From Candidatus Micrarchaeota archaeon (GTDB lineage Archaea; Micrarchaeota; Micrarchaeia; Norongarragalinales; Norongarragalinaceae): a stretch of 42,389 nucleotides of DNA. Below the pieces are notes generated by a model. That model did not search any database. It saw only the letters and a list, made by a program, of their open reading frames with translations, and was not told where the DNA came from. The stretch's first letter is position 1; each line of letters starts with the position of its first letter. The stretch is taken from assembly GCA_964634375.1 (NCBI GenBank), contig CAZWIQ010000003.1, forward strand, positions 1 to 42,389. Reading direction: 5' to 3'. Below, one piece after another: positions 3,925 through 37,715 of this stretch. A program made the translations under genes and the position numbers.

Positions 3925-6357
3925 ATGGCAAGCGAAATGAAGAATATTTACTGGTTTGAAGAGTTAGGCAAGGAAAACCTGCTTCAAGCGGGCGGGAAAG
4001 GCGCTAACCTCGGCGAAATGACGCGCGCGGGACTGCCCATCCCCCCGGGATTCATCGTCAGCGTAGGAGCCTACTACCGCGCCATCCGCGAAAACAACTT
4101 GGCTGGCTTCATCGAAGGCAAGTTGCGCAACCTCGACGTTCAAAACGCTGAAGCGCTGCAACGCGCGAGCGACGAAATCAAGGCGGCAATCGAGCGCGCC
4201 CCCGTTCCCGCGGACATCCGCACCGACATCGTGCGCGCCTACAACCGCATGTGCGGCGTAAGCGGGATTCCGAGCGCGAACCAGGAAATCCTCGTCGCGG
4301 TGCGCAGCAGCGCGACCGCCGAAGATTTGCCGACGGCTTCGTTCGCCGGGCAACAGGCGACTTTCCTGAACATGAAAGGCGCGGAACAAGTCGTCGACGC
4401 GGTGCGGCGCTGTTGGGCCTCGCTCTTCGAGGCGCGCGCGATTTACTACCGGAACGAGAACGGTTTTGAACACATGCGCGTTGGCTTGAGCGCCGTCATC
4501 CAAAAAATGATTCAAAGCGAGTCAAGCGGAGTAATGTTCACCGCCGACCCCGTGAGCGGCGACCGCTCGAAAATAATCATTGAAGCTGGGTTCGGGCTCG
4601 GCGAAGCCGTCGTGTCCGGGCAAATAACGCCCGACAACTACGTCGTCGACAAGGAAACGCTCAAGATTCTCGACAAATTCATTTCGCAACAGGAAATGAT
4701 GATTATTCGTTTGCCGAACGGCAAGACGGACCACGCGGACGTTCCAGAAGAAATCCAGGAAAAACAGAAAACGAACGACGACTTCATAGTGCAAATCGCG
4801 AAATTCGGGCGCAACATCGAAAAGCACTACGGTTACCCGCAAGACATCGAGTGGGCGGTAGAGAGAGGGCGCGTTTACATCACGCAAAGCCGCGCGATTA
4901 CGACGATCAAGGGGAAAGGCGAAGAAAGCGCGAAAAGCGAAGCAGCGCAAACGAAGCAAAGTGAAGCCAAGCCAAGCGAAGCCAAACCCCAAAGCGCGGC
5001 AGCAAGCGAAACCAAGGCCGGCGACGCGAAAGATGCGAAAGTAATCCTCAAGGGACTCGGCGCGAGCCCTGGAATCGCGAGCGGCGTCGTCCGCCTCGTA
5101 ACCGACAAAAACCAACTAGGAAAAATCGGGAAAGGCGACGTACTCGTAACCGAGATGACTAGCCCCGACTACGTTCCCGCGATGAAGCGCGCCTCGGCAA
5201 TCGTCACGGACGCGGGCGGAATGACGTGCCACGCCGCGATTGTAAGCCGTGAGCTAGGAATCCCGTGCATCGTTGGAAGCAAGACGGCGACGCGCGTTTT
5301 GAAAGATGGGCAGACGGTTACGGTCGACAGCAAGCGAGGCGTCGTCTACGACGGAAAAATCGCGCTCGAAGCAGAAACCGCGGCTGCAAGCGCTGGCGGA
5401 GCTCAAAGCCAAGCCACGACTATCGCCGCAGGAGGAGCGTATTCAACCGCAACGAAGATTTACGTCAACATAGCAGACGCGACGGTTGCTGAAAAAGTTG
5501 CCGGCAGGGACGTCGACGGAATAGGACTGCTTCGAGCCGAATTCATGATTGCGGGACTAGGGGTTCACCCGAACAAGCTCGCGAAAGACGGACGCGCAAA
5601 CGAGTTCGTCGACATGCTTGCCGAGAATCTCCGCAGAAGTTGCACCGCGTTCGACCCGCGCCCAGTGATTTACCGCGCGAACGACTTCAAGACTAACGAG
5701 TACCGCGGCTTGCCGGGCGGCGAGGAATTCGAGCCCAAGGAAGAAAACCCGATGATTGGTTACCGCGGGTGCGCGCGCTACGTCCGCGATCCGACCGTGT
5801 TCAAGATGGAAATTGAAGCCATCAAGAAAGTCCGCAACGAGTACGGACTCAAAAACTTGTGGCTCATGATTCCGTTCGTGCGAACAGTCGAGGAATTGCG
5901 AGAATGCAAACGCATTTGCGAGGAAAACGGGCTCAAGCGCTCGCGCGACTTCAAATTCGGAATAATGGCTGAAGTTCCGTCGGTTTCGATTGTTCCCGAG
6001 GAATTCTGCAAAGTCGGAATCGACTTCATGTCTATCGGGAGCAACGATTTATGCCAATTAGTGCTCGGCCTGGACCGCGATAATCAAACAATCGCCGACA
6101 GTTTCGACGAGCGCGACCCGGCGGTCGTCACGGCGATGAAAAACATTATTGAGACGTGCCACAAGTACGGAACGAAAGCGTCGATTTGCGGGCAGAGTCC
6201 AAGCACTTACCCTGAAATCGCCGAAGCGCTCGTCCGCTTCGGAATCGACAGCATGTCTGTGAACGTCGACGTCATCGAGAGGACGCGCAAATCGGTTGCG
6301 AGCGTTGAAAAGAAAATCCTGCTCGAGAGAAGCAAAAACGCCGCGGAAAAAGAGTAG
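3925..6357 (+). CDS. ppsA: Phosphoenolpyruvate synthase (pyruvate, water dikinase)
   Basis: N-terminus LGKENLLQAGGKGANLGEM..GLPIPPGF, phospho-His swivel motif GGMTCHAAIVSRELGIPCIVG and a C-terminal PEP-utilizer TIM domain. GAGGTGG lies 5 nt upstream of ATG 3925. Confidence 0.95.
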   Translation: MASEMKNIYWFEELGKENLLQAGGKGANLGEMTRAGLPIPPGFIVSVGAYYRAIRENNLAGFIEGKLRNLDVQNAEALQRASDEIKAAIERAPVPADIRTDIVRAYNRMCGVSGIPSANQEILVAVRSSATAEDLPTASFAGQQATFLNMKGAEQVVDAVRRCWASLFEARAIYYRNENGFEHMRVGLSAVIQKMIQSESSGVMFTADPVSGDRSKIIIEAGFGLGEAVVSGQITPDNYVVDKETLKILDKFISQQEMMIIRLPNGKTDHADVPEEIQEKQKTNDDFIVQIAKFGRNIEKHYGYPQDIEWAVERGRVYITQSRAITTIKGKGEESAKSEAAQTKQSEAKPSEAKPQSAAASETKAGDAKDAKVILKGLGASPGIASGVVRLVTDKNQLGKIGKGDVLVTEMTSPDYVPAMKRASAIVTDAGGMTCHAAIVSRELGIPCIVGSKTATRVLKDGQTVTVDSKRGVVYDGKIALEAETAAASAGGAQSQATTIAAGGAYSTATKIYVNIADATVAEKVAGRDVDGIGLLRAEFMIAGLGVHPNKLAKDGRANEFVDMLAENLRRSCTAFDPRPVIYRANDFKTNEYRGLPGGEEFEPKEENPMIGYRGCARYVRDPTVFKMEIEAIKKVRNEYGLKNLWLMIPFVRTVEELRECKRICEENGLKRSRDFKFGIMAEVPSVSIVPEEFCKVGIDFMSIGSNDLCQLVLGLDRDNQTIADSFDERDPAVVTAMKNIIETCHKYGTKASICGQSPSTYPEIAEALVRFGIDSMSVNVDVIERTRKSVASVEKKILLERSKNAAEKE

Positions 6358-6466: not shown

Positions 6467-9259
6467 GTGTCTTCCGAAGCTGAAATCGAAGCCGCTAAAA
6501 AAACCGTCGCAACGCTGGTCGCCCAATTCGACGAAGTTGTCGCTAGCGGGCGGTTGAAAACCTTCAACGAGGAAAACACGAAGCGCGCTTTCATAACGCC
6601 CCTATTCCGAGCCCTCGGCTGGGCCGTCGAAACCGCCGGCGACGAAGTCACGAACGAAGACCGGGTCTCGAAAGGACGCGTCGATTATTCGTTTCGCTTG
6701 AACGGCATACCCAAATTCTTTTTGGAAGCCAAAGCCGCCAGCAAGGAACTCGAAGACAAAGACACCGAGCAAGCGATTAACTACGCTTACTACAAGACGA
6801 CGACTTGGGCAGTCCTCTCAAACTTCCGCACGCTCATAATCTACAACGCGGACTGGAAAGGAAAAGAAGCCAGCGACTTCCGCTTCATCCGCTTCGAATA
6901 CAAGGAATTCCTCGACCGATTCCCGCAACTCTGGCTCCTCTCGAAACCCGCGTTCCAACAAGGATTGCTCGACAAGGAAGCAGCCAACCTCGGCAAAAAA
7001 GACTACCGCCCGAAAGTAGGCGACTTGCTCCTCCAAGAACTAACCAAACAACGCGAAGCCCTCTCCAAAAACATCGTGAAAAACAACGCCAAGCGCGACT
7101 TAAGCGAGGCAGACGTTGACGAAGCAGTCCAACGCATCATCGACCGTCTAATCTTCATTCGAACTACGGAAGACCGCAACATCGAAGAACCCCGCCTCAA
7201 AACCCTCGCGCGCGAATTCGCGGGAGGCAAACGCGGCAAAGTCACTGCCGCGCTCAACGAGATTTACTTGAAGTACGACAAGACTTACAACAGCAAGCTC
7301 TTCACTTTCAAGCAAGAGGACGAAACCCAACGCCACTTGTGCGAAACCCTGGAAATCGACAACGAAACCCTCCTCAGCCTAATCGAAAACTTGATGAAAT
7401 ACGATTTCTCGGCGATTGACGCCGACGTCCTCGGCAACATTTACGAGCAATACTTAAGCCACATCTTGCGAAAGACTGAGAAGCGCGCGAAAGTCGAAAG
7501 CAAGGAAGCCCACCGCAAAGAACAAGGCATTTACTACACGCCGACTTACATCGTGGACTACATCGTGCGCAACACGCTCGGCGAAGCAATCAAAAACAAG
7601 AAGCCCGACGAAGTCGACGAGATTCGCGTTCTCGACATGGCTTGCGGCAGCGGCTCCTTCCTGCTCAAGGCTTTCGACGTTCTCGACGGCTACTACAAGA
7701 CTCACGACAAGCAATACGCGCAGTCCGCCCTTGACACCGCCACCGACGCCGCGAAAGTCACGCGCAAGACGAAGATTCTCCGCAACAACTTGTTTGGAGT
7801 CGACCTGGACCCTAAAGCCGTCGAAATCGCGCAGCTTAACCTGCTCCTCAAAGCCGCGGAGACGAAGCACCGCCTTCCGGACTTGCGTGAGAACGTCAAG
7901 CAGGGGAATTCGCTTATCGACCAAGCTCTGGGGGAGGATGCGCGGGCGCGTGCGTTTGACTGGAAGAAGGAATTCTCTGAAATCGTCGGCACTGGCGGTT
8001 TCGACGTCATCATCGGCAACCCGCCATACGTGAGCGGCTGGAACATGAGTTTAGAATTTCGCGACTGGATAAAAAAATCAGGCGCATATGCAACGGCGGA
8101 CAAGCATTGGGATATTTACGTTTTGTTTCTCGAACGAAGCATTAAACTAATGAAGAATGGCGCGCGGCTTGGAATGATTCTGCCATACTCTTTCCTTAAC
8201 CAAGCGTATGCACAAAAAATAAGAAGAATGATTTTAGACTCCTGTAAAATTCACGCAATAGTCGATTTGTCTGAAATCGATGTTTTTGCTGACGCGACCG
8301 TAAGAAATTGTATAATAATCTTAGAAAAAAACAATAAAACAGAAAACATTGTGACAATAATAAAAGCAAAGACTGCGGGCGGAATCAGCGAAACAATTGA
8401 ACACAAAATATCTCAAAAAACGTTCAACGAAACGCCAGAAAATATGTTCCGCGTCGATTTGCAACCACGCGACATCAAACTTATAGAAAAAATAAAAACC
8501 AAAAGCATAACACTCGATAAAATTGTTTATTCGACTACAGGGGTCGTCCCACACAGTGAAAAGGAAGGAAAGGGAAAGGAGGCATACATCTCGACTCAAA
8601 AAAAGAGTCAGAAGAGCGTTCCGTATATTGAAGGAAAAAATGTAAACAGATACCAAATAGATTACGACGGACGATTTCTCGAATACGACCCGGACATCGT
8701 TTACAGGCCGTCTTTACCAGAGCTGTTGAAACAACCTAAAATTCTAATAAAAAACGTCGTTGGAAAAAATGGAATTACGGCAACTTTTGACGACTTCGGC
8801 TATTTTACTAATGAAACAGTTAATTGTGTGACAACAAAAAATAAAATAGCTGGCGTTGAACGAAAAGACATTAGATTTTCAAAAAATGAGCTAAGTGAAA
8901 GTGAAAAATACGATTTGAAATTCATCTTAGGACTAATCAACTCTAAACTATCTAATTGGGTTTACCGAAAGATGATTAGCGGAGAACTACATTTCTATCC
9001 AAAGGACGTTAGATCGTTACTGGTGTTCGACATCGAAAAAAACCCAAATAAAAAAGAAGTAATTGAAATAGCCGCAGCTACCGATAAAATGCTAAAGCTA
9101 CATAAGAAACTTACTCCGAACACAGACAAGCAAACAGATGAGCGCACGCGGTTGGAGAAGGAAATCGCTGAGACGGATGCTCGGATTGACGACTTGGTTT
9201 TTGATTTGTACGGGTTGACGGCGGAAGAACGCCGAATCATCGAAGAGGCGGTAAAATGA
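6467..9259 (+). CDS. Type IIG restriction-modification enzyme (PD-(D/E)xK nuclease + gamma-class N6-adenine DNA methyltransferase + target-recognition domain)
   Basis: N-terminal nuclease-like GRVDYSF...FFLEAKAAS. MTase motif I is VLDMACGSGSFLL and motif IV is IIGNPPYV. A long C-terminal TRD follows. GTG 6467 is preceded by GGTGGG. The listed 6296-6466 extension overlaps ppsA and is Arg-rich. Confidence 0.85.
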   Translation: MSSEAEIEAAKKTVATLVAQFDEVVASGRLKTFNEENTKRAFITPLFRALGWAVETAGDEVTNEDRVSKGRVDYSFRLNGIPKFFLEAKAASKELEDKDTEQAINYAYYKTTTWAVLSNFRTLIIYNADWKGKEASDFRFIRFEYKEFLDRFPQLWLLSKPAFQQGLLDKEAANLGKKDYRPKVGDLLLQELTKQREALSKNIVKNNAKRDLSEADVDEAVQRIIDRLIFIRTTEDRNIEEPRLKTLAREFAGGKRGKVTAALNEIYLKYDKTYNSKLFTFKQEDETQRHLCETLEIDNETLLSLIENLMKYDFSAIDADVLGNIYEQYLSHILRKTEKRAKVESKEAHRKEQGIYYTPTYIVDYIVRNTLGEAIKNKKPDEVDEIRVLDMACGSGSFLLKAFDVLDGYYKTHDKQYAQSALDTATDAAKVTRKTKILRNNLFGVDLDPKAVEIAQLNLLLKAAETKHRLPDLRENVKQGNSLIDQALGEDARARAFDWKKEFSEIVGTGGFDVIIGNPPYVSGWNMSLEFRDWIKKSGAYATADKHWDIYVLFLERSIKLMKNGARLGMILPYSFLNQAYAQKIRRMILDSCKIHAIVDLSEIDVFADATVRNCIIILEKNNKTENIVTIIKAKTAGGISETIEHKISQKTFNETPENMFRVDLQPRDIKLIEKIKTKSITLDKIVYSTTGVVPHSEKEGKGKEAYISTQKKSQKSVPYIEGKNVNRYQIDYDGRFLEYDPDIVYRPSLPELLKQPKILIKNVVGKNGITATFDDFGYFTNETVNCVTTKNKIAGVERKDIRFSKNELSESEKYDLKFILGLINSKLSNWVYRKMISGELHFYPKDVRSLLVFDIEKNPNKKEVIEIAAATDKMLKLHKKLTPNTDKQTDERTRLEKEIAETDARIDDLVFDLYGLTAEERRIIEEAVK

Positions 9260-32439: not shown

Positions 32440-32455
32440 AATCAATATATTGTGG
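32440..32455. promoter_or_regulatory. NrdR-box-like operator 1 (AATCAATATATTGTGG)
   Basis: 13 of 16 matches by hand to the bacterial NrdR-box consensus acaCwAtATaTwGtgt. It contains the perfect 10-bp palindrome CAATATATTG. Confidence 0.6.
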
Positions 32456-32472
32456 CTGGGCAGGCGCGCAAA

Positions 32473-32488
32473 GCGCCATATATAGTGT
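32473..32488. promoter_or_regulatory. NrdR-box-like operator 2 (GCGCCATATATAGTGT), overlapping the TATA-like element
   Basis: 13 of 16 matches to the same consensus, with a perfect right half-site TATAGTGT. Its centre is 33 bp from box 1. ATATATAG is the best TATA candidate upstream of the nrd ORF. Confidence 0.6.
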
Positions 32489-32601
32489 TTTCAAAGCGAA
32501 AATAGCGGCAAGCTAGCAACCCGTTTTTTCGTCGTTTGACGATAAAAAACAGCGGAAAACCGGGTTTTCTGGGTTTCGGGTTTGAACGGAGTTGGTGGAA
32601 A

Positions 32602-35214
32602 TTGAAGTGTCCTTATTGCGGGAATCCGGAAACGAGCGTCGTCGACTCGCGCGACGCTGAAGCCGACGAGAAGACGCGGCGCAGGCGCGAGTGCAAGAAT
32701 TGCGGCAAGCGCTTCACGACTTACGAGGAAGCCGCGCTCGAGTTGTTCGTGCTCAAGAAAAGCGGGAGGCGCGAGCCTTTCGACCGCAAGAAGATTAAAA
32801 ACGGCGTGGAACACGCTTGCTTCAAGCGCCCCGTCTCCGAGGAAAAAATCGATTCGCTAGTCGACGAAGTCGAACGCGAGCTGCGCTCGCGCGACGTCAG
32901 CGAGATTCCGAGCCGCGACATCGGCGAACTCGTGATGGACAAGCTGCGCGGCGTCGACGAAGTCGCTTACATTAACTTCGCGAGCGTTTACAGGCAGTTC
33001 CGCGATTTGACTGCGCTCGAACGCGAAATCAAGGCGCTGCGCGTCGTGCGCGAGGAAAGCGAAGGCGAAGCGCAAGCGAAAGACTCGACTGATTTCATGC
33101 AGCTCATAGTTGAAAGCCCTACGCAAGGCATCGCGCAGCTTTGGGACAGGACGCGAATAACGGAAGCGCTCGTCAAGGAAACGGGGCTCGCGCAAGCAGA
33201 GGCGGAAGACATCGCTCTCGCGGTCGAGCGGCGCTTGTCGGTTTCGGGAATGAAGAGCATCAGCGTGTCGCTGATTCGCGAACTCGTGAACAACGAATTG
33301 TTCGAGCGCGGGCACAAGCGCAAGCTAAGCAAGCAAGAAATTTTGGGAATCGCCGTTTACAACCTCAACCAATTGATTTTCGCGAAGAGCAACGAGAACA
33401 GCAACATCATGGCGAACAACCCCGAGGCGGTGAATCTCGCAATCGCGGAAACCGTGCTGAAACAATACGCGTTGAAGGAAGTTTTTTCGCGGGAAGTAAG
33501 CGAAGCGCACCTCAGCGGAGCAGTCTACCTCCACGACTTGGGTTACATCGTCCGCACGTACTGCTCCGGTCACAGCCCGGAATACATCAAGAAATACGGC
33601 TTGCAGTTGATGAACCTCGCGTCGCACTCTTACCCGGCGAAACACGCCGCGACGCTCACGGGCCACCTCAACACTTTCCTCGCCTCGATGCAGGCGAATT
33701 ACGCGGGCGCGCTCGGGCTCGCTTACCTCAACGTTTTTTACGCGCCGTTGCTCCGCGGCTTGAGTTACGAAGAGTTGAAGCAGCACGCGCAACACCTGAT
33801 TTTCGCGTTCTCGCAAAACGCTTTTTCGCGCGGCTCCCAAACGCTTTTCATCGACATCAACCTGCACTTCGGAGTTCCCGATTATCTCCGCGGCGTGCCC
33901 GCGATTGGCGAGGGAGGAAAATACATGCTGCAGCGGCCGAACGGCGAAGTCGAACGCCTCGACGACGTGCCTCGAGACGCGCAAGGAAAGCTCGTGCAGC
34001 CGAGCGACGCGGCGCGCGACGGGCGCATTCTCACTTACGCGGACTACGAGCGCGAAGCCCAGCAGTTCACGCGCGCGCTCCTCGAAATCGCTCGGAAGGG
34101 CGACAGCGAAGGCAAACCCTTCGCTTTCCCGAAACTAAACTGCCACGTCGACGCCGCGACTTTCGCCGACGCGGCGCAAGACGAGCTCCTGCGCTTCGCT
34201 TGCGGCGTGAGCGCCGCTAACGGCGCGCCTTACTTCATTTTCGACCGGGAGGCGGCAACGCTGAGCCAGTGCTGCCGCTTGAAAACGAAAATCGAGGACC
34301 CGTGGCTGCTCAATCACCCGGAAAGCATTCGGTTCTGCGGATTCCAAATCGTAACGATCAACCTTCCGCAGGCGGCTTACCGCGCCGCGCAAGCAAGCGA
34401 GAAAGTCGGAGCGAAGCCGACCGTGGAAAGCGTCGTGCGCGAAGTCGAGTGGGCGATGGACACCGCGATGAAGGCGCACTTGCAGAAAAGAAAGTTCATC
34501 CAAAAAATCATGAGCAGCCCGGGAACGCCGTTGTGGACTGTCGGCGCGCCTGCCGCTGACGGCAAACCTTACCTCGACCTCGACAAGGCGAGTTACATCA
34601 TCGGCATGATCGGGCTCAACGAGTGCGTGAAAACGATTACGGGGCAAGCGCTTCACGAAAGCGACGCCGCCTTTCGAGTCGGCGTGCGCGTAATCGCGGC
34701 GATGCACTTGAAAGCGAAGGCGCTGGAAGCCGAACACAAGATGAAGGTGGTGCTCGAGGAAACGCCTGCGGAGAGCGCGAGCCTGCGGCTCGCGAGAATC
34801 GACCTCCAACGCTTTCCTCAGTACGCGCGCGGGCTCGTGCGCGGCAACGCTGAAACCGGCGAAGTCTATTATACCAACAGTATTCACTTGCAGGCTGACG
34901 CGCCAGTCGACATCATTGAACGCATTGAAAAGCAAGCGGTCTTCAACAACTTGATCGAAGCCGGCTGCATCACGCACGTATTCCTCGGCGAACAACAGCC
35001 TAGCCCCGAGAGCGTTTACGCGCTCGTGCGCCGCACGTGGGAAAACACCCAGAGCGCGCAAATCGTTGTTTCGCCGGAATTCACCGTCTGCAACGACTGC
35101 GGCGCGGTGAGCCGCGGCTTCAACCGCGATACTGAAGCGCCAGTAAAACAAGCAACGCAGGCAGCGCCAAGCCAAGCGAAGGGCGACGTGGTGTTCGAGA
35201 AAATAACTAGATGA
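32602..35214 (+). CDS. nrdD: Fusion protein: NrdR module (zinc ribbon + ATP-cone) - second ATP-cone - class III (anaerobic) ribonucleoside-triphosphate reductase NrdD core, lacking the glycyl-radical tail
   Basis: (M)KCPYCGNPETSVVDSRDAE...RRRRECKNCGKRFTTYE plus an ATP-cone (FDRKKI...VAYINFASVYRQF) forms the NrdR module. A linker and a second ATP-cone (WDRTRITEAL...) follow, then the NrdD core (GAVYLHDLGY..., ...EFTVCNDCG). TTG 32602 is preceded by GGAGTTGGTGG. Confidence 0.85.
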   Translation: MKCPYCGNPETSVVDSRDAEADEKTRRRRECKNCGKRFTTYEEAALELFVLKKSGRREPFDRKKIKNGVEHACFKRPVSEEKIDSLVDEVERELRSRDVSEIPSRDIGELVMDKLRGVDEVAYINFASVYRQFRDLTALEREIKALRVVREESEGEAQAKDSTDFMQLIVESPTQGIAQLWDRTRITEALVKETGLAQAEAEDIALAVERRLSVSGMKSISVSLIRELVNNELFERGHKRKLSKQEILGIAVYNLNQLIFAKSNENSNIMANNPEAVNLAIAETVLKQYALKEVFSREVSEAHLSGAVYLHDLGYIVRTYCSGHSPEYIKKYGLQLMNLASHSYPAKHAATLTGHLNTFLASMQANYAGALGLAYLNVFYAPLLRGLSYEELKQHAQHLIFAFSQNAFSRGSQTLFIDINLHFGVPDYLRGVPAIGEGGKYMLQRPNGEVERLDDVPRDAQGKLVQPSDAARDGRILTYADYEREAQQFTRALLEIARKGDSEGKPFAFPKLNCHVDAATFADAAQDELLRFACGVSAANGAPYFIFDREAATLSQCCRLKTKIEDPWLLNHPESIRFCGFQIVTINLPQAAYRAAQASEKVGAKPTVESVVREVEWAMDTAMKAHLQKRKFIQKIMSSPGTPLWTVGAPAADGKPYLDLDKASYIIGMIGLNECVKTITGQALHESDAAFRVGVRVIAAMHLKAKALEAEHKMKVVLEETPAESASLRLARIDLQRFPQYARGLVRGNAETGEVYYTNSIHLQADAPVDIIERIEKQAVFNNLIEAGCITHVFLGEQQPSPESVYALVRRTWENTQSAQIVVSPEFTVCNDCGAVSRGFNRDTEAPVKQATQAAPSQAKGDVVFEKITR

Positions 35215-35227
35215 GGTGAAAGCAACA

Positions 35228-35461
35228 ATGACGGAAGAAAAGACAGTTCATGGTCCCCACTGTCCTCACTGCGGCAGCGAAAACGTTTTCGGGATATCGC
35301 GCGTAGTCGGCTACTTCAGCCGAATCAACAACTGGAACAAGAGCAAGACCGCCGAATTCAAGGACAGGCAAAAAGGAAATTACGCCGTCCCGCAAACCGC
35401 GAAAGCGGTGGACGCAGAATTCGACTCGAAAGCGCTGACGCAGAAAGCCAAGTGCGCGTGA
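35228..35461 (+). CDS. Stand-alone glycyl-radical C-terminal piece of NrdD (77 aa)
   Basis: HCPHCGSENVFGISRVVGYFSRINNWNKSKTAEFKDRQ is the second Zn Cys pair plus the RVxGY glycyl-radical motif of class III RNR. GAGGTGA lies 8 nt upstream of ATG 35228. The ORF is in a different frame from the large ORF. Confidence 0.8.
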   Translation: MTEEKTVHGPHCPHCGSENVFGISRVVGYFSRINNWNKSKTAEFKDRQKGNYAVPQTAKAVDAEFDSKALTQKAKCA

Positions 35462-35505: not shown

Positions 35506-35763
35506 ATGCCGAAAGTAAAGATTTTCTGGAAGGAAACTTGCCCGAACTGCCCGGCGGCGAAAGAGTTAGGCAAACGGCTGGCGGCTGAAGGCGCCGTCGT
35601 CGAATTCCTCAACGTCAAGGACGCCGACGGGCTCACGGAAGCCGTGCTTCACGGAGTCATGGCGACGCCGAGCGTCGCCGTCGTCGCGGACGACGGAACG
35701 GAGAAAACCGTGTGGCGCGGCGCCACCCCGAAGCTCGACGAAGTCAAGGAAGCACTCAAGTAA
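35506..35763 (+). CDS. Small glutaredoxin/NrdH-like thioredoxin-fold redoxin
   Basis: KVKIFWKETCPNCPAAKEL...GVMATPSV is a CxxC redoxin with cis-Pro context, 85 aa long. Confidence 0.8.
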   Translation: MPKVKIFWKETCPNCPAAKELGKRLAAEGAVVEFLNVKDADGLTEAVLHGVMATPSVAVVADDGTEKTVWRGATPKLDEVKEALK

Positions 35764-35787
35764 GAGATGCCAACACCCTAACGCTTA

Positions 35788-35799
35788 TATACTAGTATA
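35788..35799. promoter_or_regulatory. Perfect 12-bp palindrome TATACTAGTATA in the AT-rich spacer upstream of the toxin-antitoxin-like pair
   Basis: Read directly. It is a candidate promoter/operator for the AbrB-type antitoxin. Confidence 0.35.
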
Positions 35800-35836
35800 A
35801 CTAATTATAATCAATAAAACTCAGCGGGCGGTTGGC

Positions 35837-36061
35837 TTGGCGCGGAAGGAATTCATTTTTTCGAAGCACTACCGCGAAGACAAGGACATCGACGTAAGCC
35901 TTGCAGTAGACTGCATTCACACGGGAAAAAAGGAACCGGAAGAAGAACCGAACAAATTCAAGGCGCGGAAAAACTACCGGAAAGGCGAGTTAATCGTCGT
36001 TTTCAAGGACTGCGGCGAGTATTTTTTCGTGGTAACCGCTTTTTGGAACGTCAGGAAATGA
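35837..36061 (+). CDS. DUF4258-like putative toxin (74 aa)
   Basis: FIFSKHYREDKDIDVSLAVDCIHTGKK...GELIVVFKDCGEYFFVVTAFW fits the DUF4258 pattern (f.S.H.......I......i..G, then l.VV.....i.VvTay) from memory. TTG start. Confidence 0.45.
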   Translation: MARKEFIFSKHYREDKDIDVSLAVDCIHTGKKEPEEEPNKFKARKNYRKGELIVVFKDCGEYFFVVTAFWNVRK

Positions 36062-36082
36062 GAAAGCAAGGGAGTGATGGGC

Positions 36083-36409
36083 ATGGCTTTGAATCTCGAC
36101 GGAAAAAAGTGTTGCGCGTGCGGCAAAGGCAGGCTCCGCAAGATTCAGGATGAAATCGAACCCGGCATTTTCGTCGAAGCGTTCAAGTGCAGTGAATGCA
36201 ACGAAATCGTTTACCCCCAGCATGTCATGGAAAAAGTGGAGGCGTTGTACCGCGACAAAGCTGCCGAACGCAGTTTAATCAAAGTCGGCGCTAGCTTGGC
36301 GTTCGCGATTCCGAGCGAAATCGTGAAAAAACTGGGGTTGCGTCCGAAGGAAAAAGTTTTCATTACGAGCAAGGGAAACGAAATCATCGCGCGCGTTTCC
36401 CAAGCGTGA
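36083..36409 (+). CDS. Putative antitoxin: MqsA/YgiT-like zinc ribbon fused to an AbrB/SpoVT-type DNA-binding domain
   Basis: CCACGKGRL...FKCSECNEIV, then IKVGASLAFAIPSEIVKKLGLRPKEKVFI. GGGAGTGA lies upstream. Alternative starts are at 36074 and 36077. Confidence 0.55.
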   Translation: MALNLDGKKCCACGKGRLRKIQDEIEPGIFVEAFKCSECNEIVYPQHVMEKVEALYRDKAAERSLIKVGASLAFAIPSEIVKKLGLRPKEKVFITSKGNEIIARVSQA

Positions 36410-36437
36410 AAAACTAGTTTCAACATGGCGACGAATA

Positions 36438-36995
36438 ATGGGTTTGGGTAGCGTTAGAAACGCGGCAGCCATTCTGCGGCAAGAAAAGTACGCGAGCGTA
36501 TTGCGCCTAAGAGACACGGAGATAATACCCCGCGGAAGTTGGCTGGGCATACTCGTTCCAGCAAGAGGATACGAACGCATTTCCAGAGAAGACTTATTGA
36601 GGCCAAGGTGCATCGCTAAAAGAATACCCGCACTGCCGTTAGCGACTGAATTAGGAGACGCTTTAAGGCGAGAAGAATTTGCGCCTATCGTCGAGGTAGG
36701 CAACGAGGCACGCGCGGAAGGACGCATGAGATTCTATCACGAGCTTGTAGCAAAAGAGTTACCTGAAGAAGTTCAAAAAAGAATGAAAAAATTAGGAGAA
36801 GAACAAGAAAAAGCAAGAACACGTTGCGGGCAGTCCACTGGCGATGCGCCTTCACATAAACAGAGTTGGAAAATAGCCGACAGGAATGCAAAGGCGCTAT
36901 TCGCGTTGGCGCAAGACCCGCCCGATTACGAACCTTTGTTGGCTGCGCTTAAAACGCTTACGGCGCGGGCAATGACGGTGAAGGCTAAGAGTTGA
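36438..36995 (+). CDS. Hypothetical protein (185 aa), no recognisable domain
   Basis: The ORF fills the gap between the antitoxin and nrdG on the same strand. It appears lower in GC than the backbone (not counted). Coding status is uncertain. Confidence 0.35.
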   Translation: MGLGSVRNAAAILRQEKYASVLRLRDTEIIPRGSWLGILVPARGYERISREDLLRPRCIAKRIPALPLATELGDALRREEFAPIVEVGNEARAEGRMRFYHELVAKELPEEVQKRMKKLGEEQEKARTRCGQSTGDAPSHKQSWKIADRNAKALFALAQDPPDYEPLLAALKTLTARAMTVKAKS

Positions 36996-37001
36996 ACAAA
37001 C

Positions 37002-37715
37002 ATGCTCGACATCAAAGGATTAATGCCTACGTCGCTAATCGAATACCCCGGCAAAATCGCCGCCGTCGTCTTCTTGAACGGCTGCAACTTCCGTTGCCCC
37101 TTCTGCCAAAACGCGAGCCTCGCCCTCGGCACCGAGCAAGCGCCGTCGATTCCTCGCGAGCAAGTCCTGAACTTTCTCAAAAGCCGCAAGAAGTGGCTCG
37201 ACGGAGTCGCGATAACGGGAGGCGAACCAACGCTCGCGGGAAGCGAGTTAATCGACTTCATCAAGGAAGTCAAGGCGCTCGGCTTCGCGGTCGAACTCGA
37301 GACGAACGGCTCCAGCCCCGAACTGCTTCACGAACTCATGAAAAACCGTCTCGTCGATTACTACGCGATGGACTACAAGGCGCCGCTCGACGATTACGAC
37401 CGCGTCACTGGAACGAAAGTCGATAAGGATAAAATCAAGGAAAGCGCGAAAATGCTGATTCGGGAACAAGAAAGCGCTTGCTTTGATTACGAGTTCCGCG
37501 CAACCGTCGTACCAAGGCTGTTCGACGAGCGCACCGCGTTGCGCGTAGCGCAAGAACTCAAAGGCGCGCGCCGATTTTTCCTGCAGCAGTTTCAAGCGCG
37601 CGATTGCCTCGACGCCTCGTTCAACAAGCTCGCCGCGTTTCCGCCGAAGCGCCTGCAGGAATTCGCGCAAATCATGAAGCCTTTCATCGCGGAAGTCAAA
37701 ACGCGCGGAACCTAA
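37002..37715 (+). CDS. nrdG: Anaerobic ribonucleotide reductase activating protein (radical SAM)
   Basis: SLIEYPGKIAAVVFLNGCNFRCPFCQN (CxxxCxxC), GVAITGGEPTL, and an archaeal NrdG-type length and layout. Confidence 0.9.
   Translation: MLDIKGLMPTSLIEYPGKIAAVVFLNGCNFRCPFCQNASLALGTEQAPSIPREQVLNFLKSRKKWLDGVAITGGEPTLAGSELIDFIKEVKALGFAVELETNGSSPELLHELMKNRLVDYYAMDYKAPLDDYDRVTGTKVDKDKIKESAKMLIREQESACFDYEFRATVVPRLFDERTALRVAQELKGARRFFLQQFQARDCLDASFNKLAAFPPKRLQEFAQIMKPFIAEVKTRGT

Follow-up and report, generated by a model that had tools for sequence, protein, structure and literature searches.

A complete NrdR repressor module fused in frame to a class III ribonucleotide reductase in archaea

Introduction

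The standard illustration of how a single sensor domain can control expression and activity separately is provided by NrdR and the ATP-cone of ribonucleotide reductases (RNRs). Stand-alone NrdR, for which structures are available from S. coelicolor (PDB 7P37 and 7P3F) and E. coli (9FXK), is a free protein of 150–200 aa with a zinc ribbon and a two-site ATP-cone, and is associated with pairs of 16-bp boxes that lie in tandem, some three helical turns from each other, in front of RNR genes. On the enzyme side, the class III RNR of P. copri (PcNrdD) is built in the order N-terminal nucleotide-sensing cone, linker, flap and core, and dATP drives it into cone-mediated tetramers with a disordered NxN flap and glycyl-radical domain.

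In the trigger enzymes PutA, BirA and NadR a pathway enzyme is itself the DNA-binding repressor of the pathway genes and is switched by a metabolite. Their folds and ligands are unrelated to those of the protein described here, which differs further in merging into one the two copies of a sensor domain that enzyme and regulator normally each have. Among the closest known arrangements is the nrdR–nrdD operon found in Planctomycetota (Brocadiia), Omnitrophota, CPR bacteria and some Woesearchaeota (loci L043, L077 and L032 are examples), in which nrdR lies directly 5' of nrdD.

Here we analyse a 42,389-nt stretch of a contig from a Candidatus Micrarchaeota (DPANN) archaeon (the window), in which a first-pass annotation made from the sequence had noticed a complete NrdR fused in frame to a class III RNR, an oxygen-sensitive enzyme. 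That annotation knew of no described NrdR–NrdD fusion, and our literature search agrees: the openly accessible NrdR, ATP-cone, RNR-evolution and glycyl-radical papers searched yielded no description of such a fusion and no mention of a split class III RNR or a free glycyl-radical subunit. Its remark that NrdR is predominantly bacterial needs qualifying, because archaeal NrdR has ceased to be seen as a great rarity and is reported in 22% of archaeal genomes (PMC13584703).

Results

A single open frame spans NrdR and NrdD

The NrdR–NrdD large subunit is encoded on the plus strand at 32602–35214 by one open frame of 870 aa, bounded upstream at 32536 or 32602 and downstream at 35214. The start codon is TTG at 32602, giving an N terminus of MKCPYCG; in the closest homologues this codon is ATG or GTG. 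Both the ORF scan and the frame-keeping homologues bear out the original description of an uninterrupted 870-aa ORF. The possibility that assembly or sequencing error removed a stop between nrdR and nrdD, which the annotation had raised, is rejected, and we found no evidence in its favour. A separate ENA record lists the identical product, the protein cluster has members from three contigs, and the frame is open in homologues at 84–90% identity and in 100 further clusters, the in-frame homologues coming from many samples and spanning 50–90% identity. Moreover, the canonical NrdD cone of most unfused relatives is absent from the fused proteins (see below), a difference that exceeds one lost stop.

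Two separate products, free NrdR and free NrdD, might arise by internal initiation near ATG 33097 or by proteolysis of the linker; the linker is poorly predicted, and gene callers do sometimes pick internal starts (P0103, P0060 and P0065). We nevertheless consider this very unlikely. The codon at 33097 exists, as had been pointed out, but the corresponding M166 is not kept in homologues: it is Thr in P0003, which is 86% identical, and Leu, Ile or an alignment gap in more distant proteins. No ribosome-binding site is apparent by eye before it, and as a conserved feature this start can be discarded. From one archaeal phylum to the next the fused frame has stayed uninterrupted, whereas relatives without the fusion keep two separate genes. 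The short gene calls, which seemed to be variants without a zinc ribbon, are miscalled starts of continuous fused ORFs that include it; real variants of that kind would have pointed to an NrdR cone with an allosteric role only.

Residues 1–149 form a complete NrdR

NrdR membership is defined by TIGR00244 or by PF22811 together with PF03477. Residues 1–146 cover positions 1–147 of the 147-position TIGR00244 equivalog model, scoring 162.5 bits within the full-length sequence and 168.2 bits when the N-terminal part is taken by itself (cut-off 124.65). This end-to-end match, from the profile search that the annotation had called for, establishes its assignment of the first ~150 aa as NrdR. The E. 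coli and S. coelicolor structures align full length with the same residues (E ~3e-34). What sets the protein apart from stand-alone NrdR is size and context: here NrdR makes up the N terminus of a much longer, 870-aa chain and is covalently linked to an NrdD core. Of the 150 best representatives in a library clustered at 50% identity, 149 are short (144–402 aa) and one is fused (893 aa), in a library that collapses the fused family into very few representatives and so gives no count of fusions.

The zinc ribbon occupies residues 1–42 (32602–32727; Pfam Zn_ribbon_NrdR, 68.6 bits against a cut-off of 27.2) and contains C3, C6, C31 and C34 together with D15, R17, R26–29 and R37, whose roles follow those assigned in S. 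coelicolor NrdR (PMC9110341). Its cysteine spacing is CxxC-x24-CxxC, correcting the x28 first given. Residues 49–149 (32746–33048) comprise an NrdR-type ATP-cone and the NrdR C-terminal helices; residues 49–135 are the better of two Pfam ATP-cone matches in the ORF. The key residues K52, K53, E58, F60, K64, F126, V129 and Y130 align with K50, R51, E56, F58, K62, F124, V127 and Y128 of the S. coelicolor protein, such that the inner-site and outer-site residues and the Tyr-switch C-terminal helix are all present. The cone is NrdR-like rather than NrdD-like, with 46–58% identity to cones of stand-alone NrdR (82–121 bits) against 21–41% in short, weak alignments with NrdD cone 1 (15–27 bits).

Across 81 fused sequences, in which mean column identity is 63%, no variation occurs at C3, C6, R17, R27–29, C31, C34, R37 or K52, and conservation reaches at least 90% at D15, K53, F60, K64, F126 and Y130. 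In S. coelicolor NrdR these positions make the contacts to DNA and nucleotides. The backbone-contact residue R12, which is Arg or Lys in stand-alone NrdR, is Ser in the window's own sub-clade.

NrdR boxes lie upstream of the fused genes

The annotation had placed the gene behind NrdR-type operators, and a motif scan with shuffled controls agrees. Box 1 (AATCAATATATTGTGG, 32440–32455; core CAATATATTG at 32443–32452) has three mismatches to ACACWATATATWGTGT, and its core fits the published NrdR-box regular expression. Box 2 (GCGCCATATATAGTGT, 32473–32488; core 32476–32485) follows 33 bp from box 1, leaving a 17-bp gap between the 16-mers and a core spacer of 23 nt, a spacing at the upper limit of those commonly seen. 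The two boxes fit the box-pair regular expression of a 2026 NrdR preprint and, like those of stand-alone NrdR, are tandem 16-bp sites about three helical turns apart. They are the sole matches in the window, where 0.05 would be expected, and none of 100 shuffles produced two or more. The AT-rich centre of box 2 is a candidate TATA box. A scan of the whole window at Rfam gathering thresholds found no RNA elements, the 113-nt leader that separates box 2 from the start codon included.

With up to 2 mismatches allowed, the 300-nt regions preceding 32 fused genes have 1.58 boxes per kb, compared with 0.005 per kb over the remaining 404 kb, an enrichment of 100–300-fold. At least one box is present at 29 of the 32 fused loci and a pair spaced 30–34 nt at 10, with no such pairs elsewhere; the published box-pair expression is matched at 21 (13-fold enrichment). 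Just two other sites occur at this mismatch limit: a perfect box upstream of a class II RNR (L003) and a box where the ORF for a class I-type large subunit begins (L006). At two further loci (L011 and L056) a second box pair faces a divergent ATP-cone NrdB.

The conserved operators and DNA-contact residues favour one of the annotation's readings, that of an autoregulator, and suggest that the fused enzyme is probably also its own transcription factor. They sit poorly with the idea that the NrdR part serves solely as an allosteric or oligomerisation module, no longer binding DNA in vivo, with the boxes served by a separate NrdR encoded elsewhere. The locus data span just 6–42 kb around each gene, and a stand-alone NrdR outside that span could bind the boxes; the reported frequency of NrdR among archaeal genomes and the unfused nrdR genes of some Woesearchaeota speak for this. 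We nonetheless judge the idea improbable. The near-invariance of D15, R17 and the RRRR motif in the 81 fused proteins is not expected of a merely structural ribbon, the fused copy stands at the site of the neighbouring nrdR in unfused relatives, and neither the window nor any fused locus encodes a second NrdR within the span covered.

The class III core has a separate glycyl-radical subunit

Residues 265–836 (33394–35109) match Pfam NRDD (PF13597; 364 bits). They include an NxN flap (NSN, residues 266–268; 33397–33405), a QCCR finger loop (residues 556–559; 34267–34278) and the first CxxC of the C-terminal Zn site (35089–35100). Sequence searches of the core against the PDB gave weak, partial matches only, so fold comparison was needed. 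Foldseek with an AF2 model matched both NrdR and class III RNRs, the latter (9D3X, 8P2C, 4U3E and 1H79) with E values of 1e-18 to 1e-24. Comparison with PcNrdD shows the same fold (E 1e-24), an NxN flap and the same domain order at ~16% identity; the differences are that the sensing cone is NrdR-derived with a DNA-binding zinc ribbon, that the finger loop is of the NrdD3 type and that the glycyl-radical domain is a separate polypeptide.

The annotation was right about an NrdD catalytic core and missed that the core is incomplete. The 870-aa ORF covers NRDD model positions 1–517 of 562, stops after the first CxxC and scores 316.4 against TIGR02487, below the cut-off of 326.35; neither an RVxGY glycyl-radical motif nor a full four-Cys Zn site lies within this polypeptide. 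The next ORF on the plus strand (35228–35461), with GGTGA at 35215–35219 upstream of its ATG, encodes a 77-aa glycyl-radical subunit that supplies model positions 522–561, including the second CxxC (CPHC) and then SRVVGY. The same split recurs in 26 of 31 fused loci. The C-terminal Zn site appears to be shared between the two chains. As a small free-standing glycyl-radical polypeptide the 77-aa subunit resembles GrcA/YfiD of pyruvate formate-lyase. GrcA is a spare part, whereas a large subunit without a glycyl-radical domain of its own makes the 77-aa protein obligatory. In being an RNR of two chains, the system resembles the split class II enzyme NrdJa/NrdJb.

Downstream, both on the plus strand, are a thioredoxin-fold redoxin (CPNC; 35506–35763), the likely reductant of a QCCR (NrdD3-type) enzyme, and an NrdG activase of the radical SAM type (37002–37715; TIGR02495, 193.5 bits against a cut-off of 131.15). 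The NrdD3 subclass is defined by a QCCR/A finger loop without an upstream Met, a redoxin partner and the absence of an active-site Glu. On its QCCR motif and the adjacent thioredoxin-fold gene, the large subunit is a candidate NrdD3-like enzyme; other fused homologues have MCCR or ACCR. At locus L028 a TGA codon stands at the finger-loop Cys and may encode selenocysteine.

NrdR occupies the place of the canonical NrdD cone

The architecture of Zn_ribbon_NrdR, ATP-cone and NRDD is found in 100 of the best 120 protein clusters (50–90% identity). Among 80 fetched genome loci, 31 carry the fusion, and these fall in at least seven archaeal lineages, which include Micrarchaeota, Woese-, Nano-, Aenigm-, Nanohalo- and Parvarchaeota, Asgard archaea and Bathyarchaeia. 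The fusion reported for one Micrarchaeota contig is thus kept across many archaeal lineages. Its members are annotated inconsistently, as "transcriptional regulator NrdR" or "anaerobic ribonucleoside-triphosphate reductase". At 42 loci, mostly bacterial with some Woesearchaeota, a separate nrdR of 148–182 aa lies directly 5' of nrdD. In a midpoint-rooted neighbour-joining tree without support values, the fused forms group in one archaeal and CPR clade, within which a small number of unfused members are nested.

In the fused protein, residues 150–178 (33049–33135) form a linker with a conserved DSTD motif (33082–33093) and the non-conserved ATG 33097. These ~30 residues are poorly predicted (pLDDT <50) in the AF2 model, a monomer that is silent on oligomers, and the predicted flexibility would leave room for NrdR-type assembly. 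The linker precedes residues 179–237 (33136–33312) and the NxN flap. Residues 179–237 are the second ATP-cone that the annotation had recognized, here found to be degenerate in that the basic residues of the nucleotide-binding β-hairpin are absent.

The operon-encoded NrdDs belong to the same clade (48–60% identity), have boxes upstream and share the linker motif and the degenerate second cone. Most unfused NrdDs read canonical cone first, then an LKV..(S/T)TD..L.V linker and the degenerate cone; three unfused loci start with an unrelated N-terminal segment instead. Most bacterial operons encode the glycyl-radical domain unsplit; it is split in the Woesearchaeota and some CPR loci. The fused NrdR aligns in the position of the canonical cone. 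These alignments indicate that the fusion arose from adjacent nrdR and nrdD genes and that NrdR replaced the functional cone of the enzyme. The position of the NrdR cone also favours the annotation's reading of an allosteric module, which is compatible with that of an autoregulator.

The same junction bears on whether the fusion matters for catalysis. The fused NrdR could be a transcription factor only, with the fusion tying repressor to enzyme dosage and catalysis running without overall-activity regulation. About a quarter of class III RNRs have no cone, showing that such regulation is dispensable, and a degenerate cone and a poorly predicted linker separate the NrdR cone from the core; conserved operators and DNA-contact residues are equally what a pure repressor would have. 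We regard this as unlikely, since the NrdR module took over the exact junction of the canonical cone and kept its conserved linker, which has the look of a functional substitution.

Discussion

We favour the reading, with reasonable though far from complete confidence, that the 870-aa product is a bifunctional enzyme–repressor in which a single working ATP-cone governs transcription and probably catalysis. The determinants of catalysis and of DNA binding are conserved together with the operators, and it is from this sequence conservation that we infer the dual function.

On this bifunctional reading, a rise in dATP would load the NrdR cones with both ATP and dATP, two enzyme dimers would then join through their NrdR modules in the DNA-binding tetramer known from stand-alone NrdR, and the zinc ribbons would engage the two boxes at 32440–32488. 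Since the archaeal TATA box probably falls on the AT-rich centres of the boxes, binding would repress transcription of nrdRD–grd–redoxin; other box-bearing RNR genes would be repressed in trans. The fused NrdR would, by analogy and in a dATP/ATP-dependent manner, act on archaeal TBP/TFB promoters, unlike stand-alone NrdR. The same nucleotide switch would probably turn catalysis off too, like the canonical cone in P. copri NrdD, because the NrdR cone alone has intact nucleotide-binding residues and is joined to the conserved linker of the canonical cone of unfused relatives. It would probably exert this allosteric effect on the NrdD core across the degenerate cone and the ~30-residue linker. 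With ATP alone the protein would be off the DNA and active. A more specific version, in which one dATP-made tetramer of two reductase dimers both stops catalysis and represses the whole RNR regulon (class I, II and III) at TATA-overlapping boxes, we put forward tentatively, as possible rather than probable.

In the fusion, the expression and activity uses of the ATP-cone appear merged in one polypeptide. It is a natural construct for asking whether an NrdR-type cone gates catalysis and whether a large enzyme acts as a sequence-specific repressor, and by analogy it may offer a bacterial-type repressor on archaeal promoters, Asgard lineages included. The archaeal NrdR signal may partly come from reductase fusions. 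An obligatory free glycyl-radical subunit also bears on how glycyl-radical enzymes handle oxygen damage. If one cone does both jobs, the reductase itself would be the only NrdR in many DPANN, Asgard and Bathyarchaeia genomes, the dose of enzyme would be the dose of repressor, and the detachable 6–9-kDa glycyl-radical subunit would add an oxygen-linked layer of control.

A complete NrdR fused in frame to a class III reductase

The window contains an open frame on the forward strand from 32536 to 35214. Read from a TTG at 32602, where the closest homologues have ATG or GTG, it encodes an 870-residue protein beginning MKCPYCG. Pfam models for Zn_ribbon_NrdR (residues 1–42, 68.6 bits), the ATP-cone (two stretches, the best at residues 49–135) and NRDD (residues 265–836, 364 bits) all match. 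Residues 1–146 cover positions 1–147 of the 147 in the NCBIfam NrdR equivalog TIGR00244 at 162.5–168.2 bits (cut-off 124.65 bits), and the module aligns over its full length with the structurally solved NrdR proteins of E. coli and S. coelicolor (E about 3e-34). In fold comparisons, an AlphaFold2 model of the fused protein (mean pLDDT 78.9, with residues 149–178 below 50) matches class III ribonucleotide reductases (RNRs; E 1e-18 to 1e-24) and, at its N terminus, NrdR structures (40–48% identity).

The open frame, profile matches and predicted structure bear out the first-pass annotation, which had proposed from the sequence that a complete NrdR is joined in frame to the reductase NrdD. Some details need correction: the zinc ribbon is CxxC-x24-CxxC rather than CxxC-x28-CxxC; the second ATP-cone is present but degenerate; and NrdD is not complete within the ORF, which covers NRDD model positions 1–517 of 562 and lacks the C-terminal glycyl-radical part. 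Of the sequence-level traits that define NrdR, the module has all except being free-standing, and of those that define class III RNRs the reductase has all except a glycyl-radical domain of its own.

The fusion is widespread in archaea

An artefactual origin of the fusion is ruled out. A separate ENA assembly record encodes an identical 870-residue product, with DNA identical over 4,018 nt, and the cluster of the fused protein has members on three contigs. The stronger evidence is comparative: the three-domain architecture recurs in 100 of the 120 best clusters of the protein collection (50–90% identity). When one genome per GTDB species was scanned, 560 stretches were confirmed to encode relatives. 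A single fused ORF is present in 31 of 80 fetched loci, from Micrarchaeota, Woese-/Nanoarchaeota, Aenigmatarchaeota, Nanohaloarchaeota, Parvarchaeota, Heimdall-/Promethearchaeati (Asgard) and Bathyarchaeia. The closest of these (86%) is another micrarchaeon of the order Norongarragalinales.

Recent papers describe NrdR as a zinc-ribbon and ATP-cone protein that in archaea is variously absent, rare or present in 22% of genomes (PMC13584703). The NrdR–NrdD fusion is mentioned neither in these NrdR papers nor in an analysis of RNR insertions and extensions or a 2026 review of glycyl-radical enzymes.

Database records of the fused proteins are inconsistent, with products of 850–880 residues named either 'transcriptional regulator NrdR' or 'anaerobic ribonucleoside-triphosphate reductase' (P0004, MEM0475386.1; P0015, MFA6049040.1; P0081; P0091; among others). 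Gene callers at times pick internal starts, and three short entries that seem to lack the zinc ribbon (P0060, P0065 and P0103) result from miscalled starts in continuous fused ORFs. Some fused homologues (P0037, P0039 and P0043) reach 1,323–1,383 residues and contain intein/homing-endonuclease domains (PF14528, PF14890, PF05204).

The glycyl-radical domain is encoded separately

The large ORF ends past the first CxxC of the C-terminal zinc site. A 77-residue ORF follows on the same strand at 35228–35461, with GGTGA upstream of its ATG; it holds the glycyl-radical part, with CPHC followed by SRVVGY, and matches NRDD positions 522–561, so that two polypeptides would contribute to the zinc site. 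Free glycyl-radical ORFs of 52–99 residues occur in 26 of the 31 fused loci, this one included, at distances from a 44-nt overlap to a 1,208-nt gap after the large-ORF stop and in all three relative frames (they lie downstream of the fused gene in L001–L031, L056, L082 and L083). The domain is kept in the same ORF in Aenigmatarchaeota and the Parvarchaeota locus. Some CPR and Woesearchaeota loci that lack the fusion show the split as well, so the one does not depend on the other. The papers found on NrdR, RNRs and glycyl-radical enzymes make no mention of a split class III RNR. Genes of dNTP metabolism, for a dUTPase/dCTP-deaminase family member and for thymidylate synthase, lie near some fused genes (L006; L083:5623–6045; L082:5630–7264). 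In L082 the thymidylate synthase gene stands between the large and glycyl-radical ORFs.

Downstream in the window are genes for a thioredoxin-fold protein (35506–35763) and NrdG (37002–37715). The intervening stretch, 35764–36995, looks like an inserted toxin–antitoxin-like cassette: a very AT-rich segment (35770–35830) precedes three small ORFs, of which the first and third have no family (35837–36061 and 36438–36995) and the second carries a MazE/AbrB-type antitoxin domain and a CxxC pair (36074–36409).

The finger loop of the reductase reads QCCR, a motif known from the NrdD3 subclass. In the fused ORF of an uncultured archaeon (LFW-252_1; L028, CABMEV010000003.1), a lone in-frame TGA (7558–7560) stands exactly at the first cysteine of the CCR (..TLSA-TGA-CRLKTK..), after which the frame is normal. 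This TGA may be a sequencing error or specify selenocysteine; the locus gave no hit in an Rfam scan.

Origin from neighbouring genes

Of the 80 loci, 42 have a separate nrdR, encoding 148–182 residues, directly 5' of nrdD. Most of the 42 are bacterial (Planctomycetota/Brocadiia, Omnitrophota, CPR phyla, Nitrospirota and others), and some come from Woesearchaeota. Most unfused NrdDs examined open with a canonical ATP-cone (VRKRDGR..F...KI ... AKAYILYR), and three (L025, L033 and L036) have an unrelated N-terminal segment instead. In the aligned unfused proteins the canonical cone is followed by a conserved LKV(R/V)K..(S/T)TD..L.V linker, a cone-like domain without the basic hairpin residues, and the core. 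Linker and degenerate cone are common to both forms, and in fused proteins the whole NrdR aligns at the position of the canonical cone. The fused cone shares 46–58% identity with neighbouring stand-alone NrdR cones (82–121 bits), compared with weak, often short alignments to the first NrdD cone (15–27 bits). Judged by these alignments, the fusion joined adjacent nrdR and nrdD genes, at the cost of the reductase's own functional cone. In a rough neighbour-joining tree the fused forms fall into one clade of archaea and CPR bacteria, within which a few unfused members are nested.

NrdR boxes and conserved contacts point to a repressor

Two NrdR-box-like 16-mers, at 32440–32455 and 32473–32488, precede the fused gene. 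They are the only box matches in 42 kb, none of 100 shuffles yielded as many as two, and the pair fits the regular expression that a 2026 NrdR preprint uses for box pairs, in line with the operators that the first-pass annotation had placed here. The 113 nt between the second box and the TTG (32489–32601) contain T- and G-rich repeats (aaaaccgggttttctgggtttcgggttt) and have no Rfam match.

In the 300 nt preceding each of 32 fused genes, sites with at most two mismatches to ACACWATATATWGTGT have a density of 1.58 per kb; in the other 404 kb the density is 0.005 per kb. Of the 32 loci, 29 have one or more sites with no more than four mismatches, 10 have a pair 30–34 nt apart (none elsewhere), and 21 match the published expression upstream (13-fold enrichment). 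Both sites with at most two mismatches in the remaining 404 kb adjoin RNR genes. One is a perfect box that precedes a class II RNR by 12 nt (L003:2402–2417); the other lies at the apparent 5' end of a divergent ORF for a class I-type large subunit, which has two ATP-cones (L006:5440–5455). Second box pairs (L011, about 1595–1642; L056, about 5715–5762) face a divergent NrdB with its own N-terminal ATP-cone. A dUTPase-family gene is likewise preceded, at 12 nt, by a box-like site with three mismatches (L006:9943–9958).

In several loci the proximal box is centred about 22–31 nt from the start codon. A leaderless archaeal gene would have its TATA box at about that distance, and the box-bound NrdR part may repress by occluding it.

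Among 81 fused sequences (mean column identity 63%), C3, C6, R17, R27–29, C31, C34, R37 and K52 are invariant and D15, K53, F60, K64, F126 and Y130 at least 90% conserved. The equivalent residues have known roles in S. coelicolor NrdR: R26–29 and R37 touch the DNA backbone and D15 and R17 read bases (PMC9110341), and K50, R51, F58, K62, F124 and Y128 bind ATP and dATP. The conserved contact residues, the upstream boxes and the boxes at other RNR genes together suggest that the NrdR part is probably still a repressor. The main caveat is a possible free NrdR encoded elsewhere in the genome; neither the window nor any fused locus encodes a second NrdR.

A proposed single ATP-cone for repression and enzyme activity

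The NrdR cone is the sole cone in the fused protein with nucleotide-binding residues. The conserved linker behind it, which in unfused relatives comes after the canonical cone, is connected through the degenerate cone with the invariant NxN flap (N266-S267-N268). The flap and glycyl-radical domain of P. copri NrdD become ordered or disordered when nucleotide binds the N-terminal cone, and dATP induces cone-mediated tetramers. The DNA-binding form of stand-alone NrdR is a tetramer (PMC9110341), and if dATP paired two reductase dimers, the assembly would provide four NrdR modules. More likely than not, the NrdR cone is both repressor switch and enzyme activity switch. That it acts in repression only, with no role in enzyme activity, would fit the boxes and DNA contacts but leave aside the shared linker to the flap, and is unlikely. 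A purely allosteric module, in which the NrdR part does not act as a repressor, would leave the conservation of the DNA-contact residues unexplained, and is less likely still.

Enzyme-repressors such as PutA, BirA and NadR are the closest systems in concept to the NrdR–NrdD fusion. The fusion is real and widespread; what it does is as yet an inference, but one that is directly testable.
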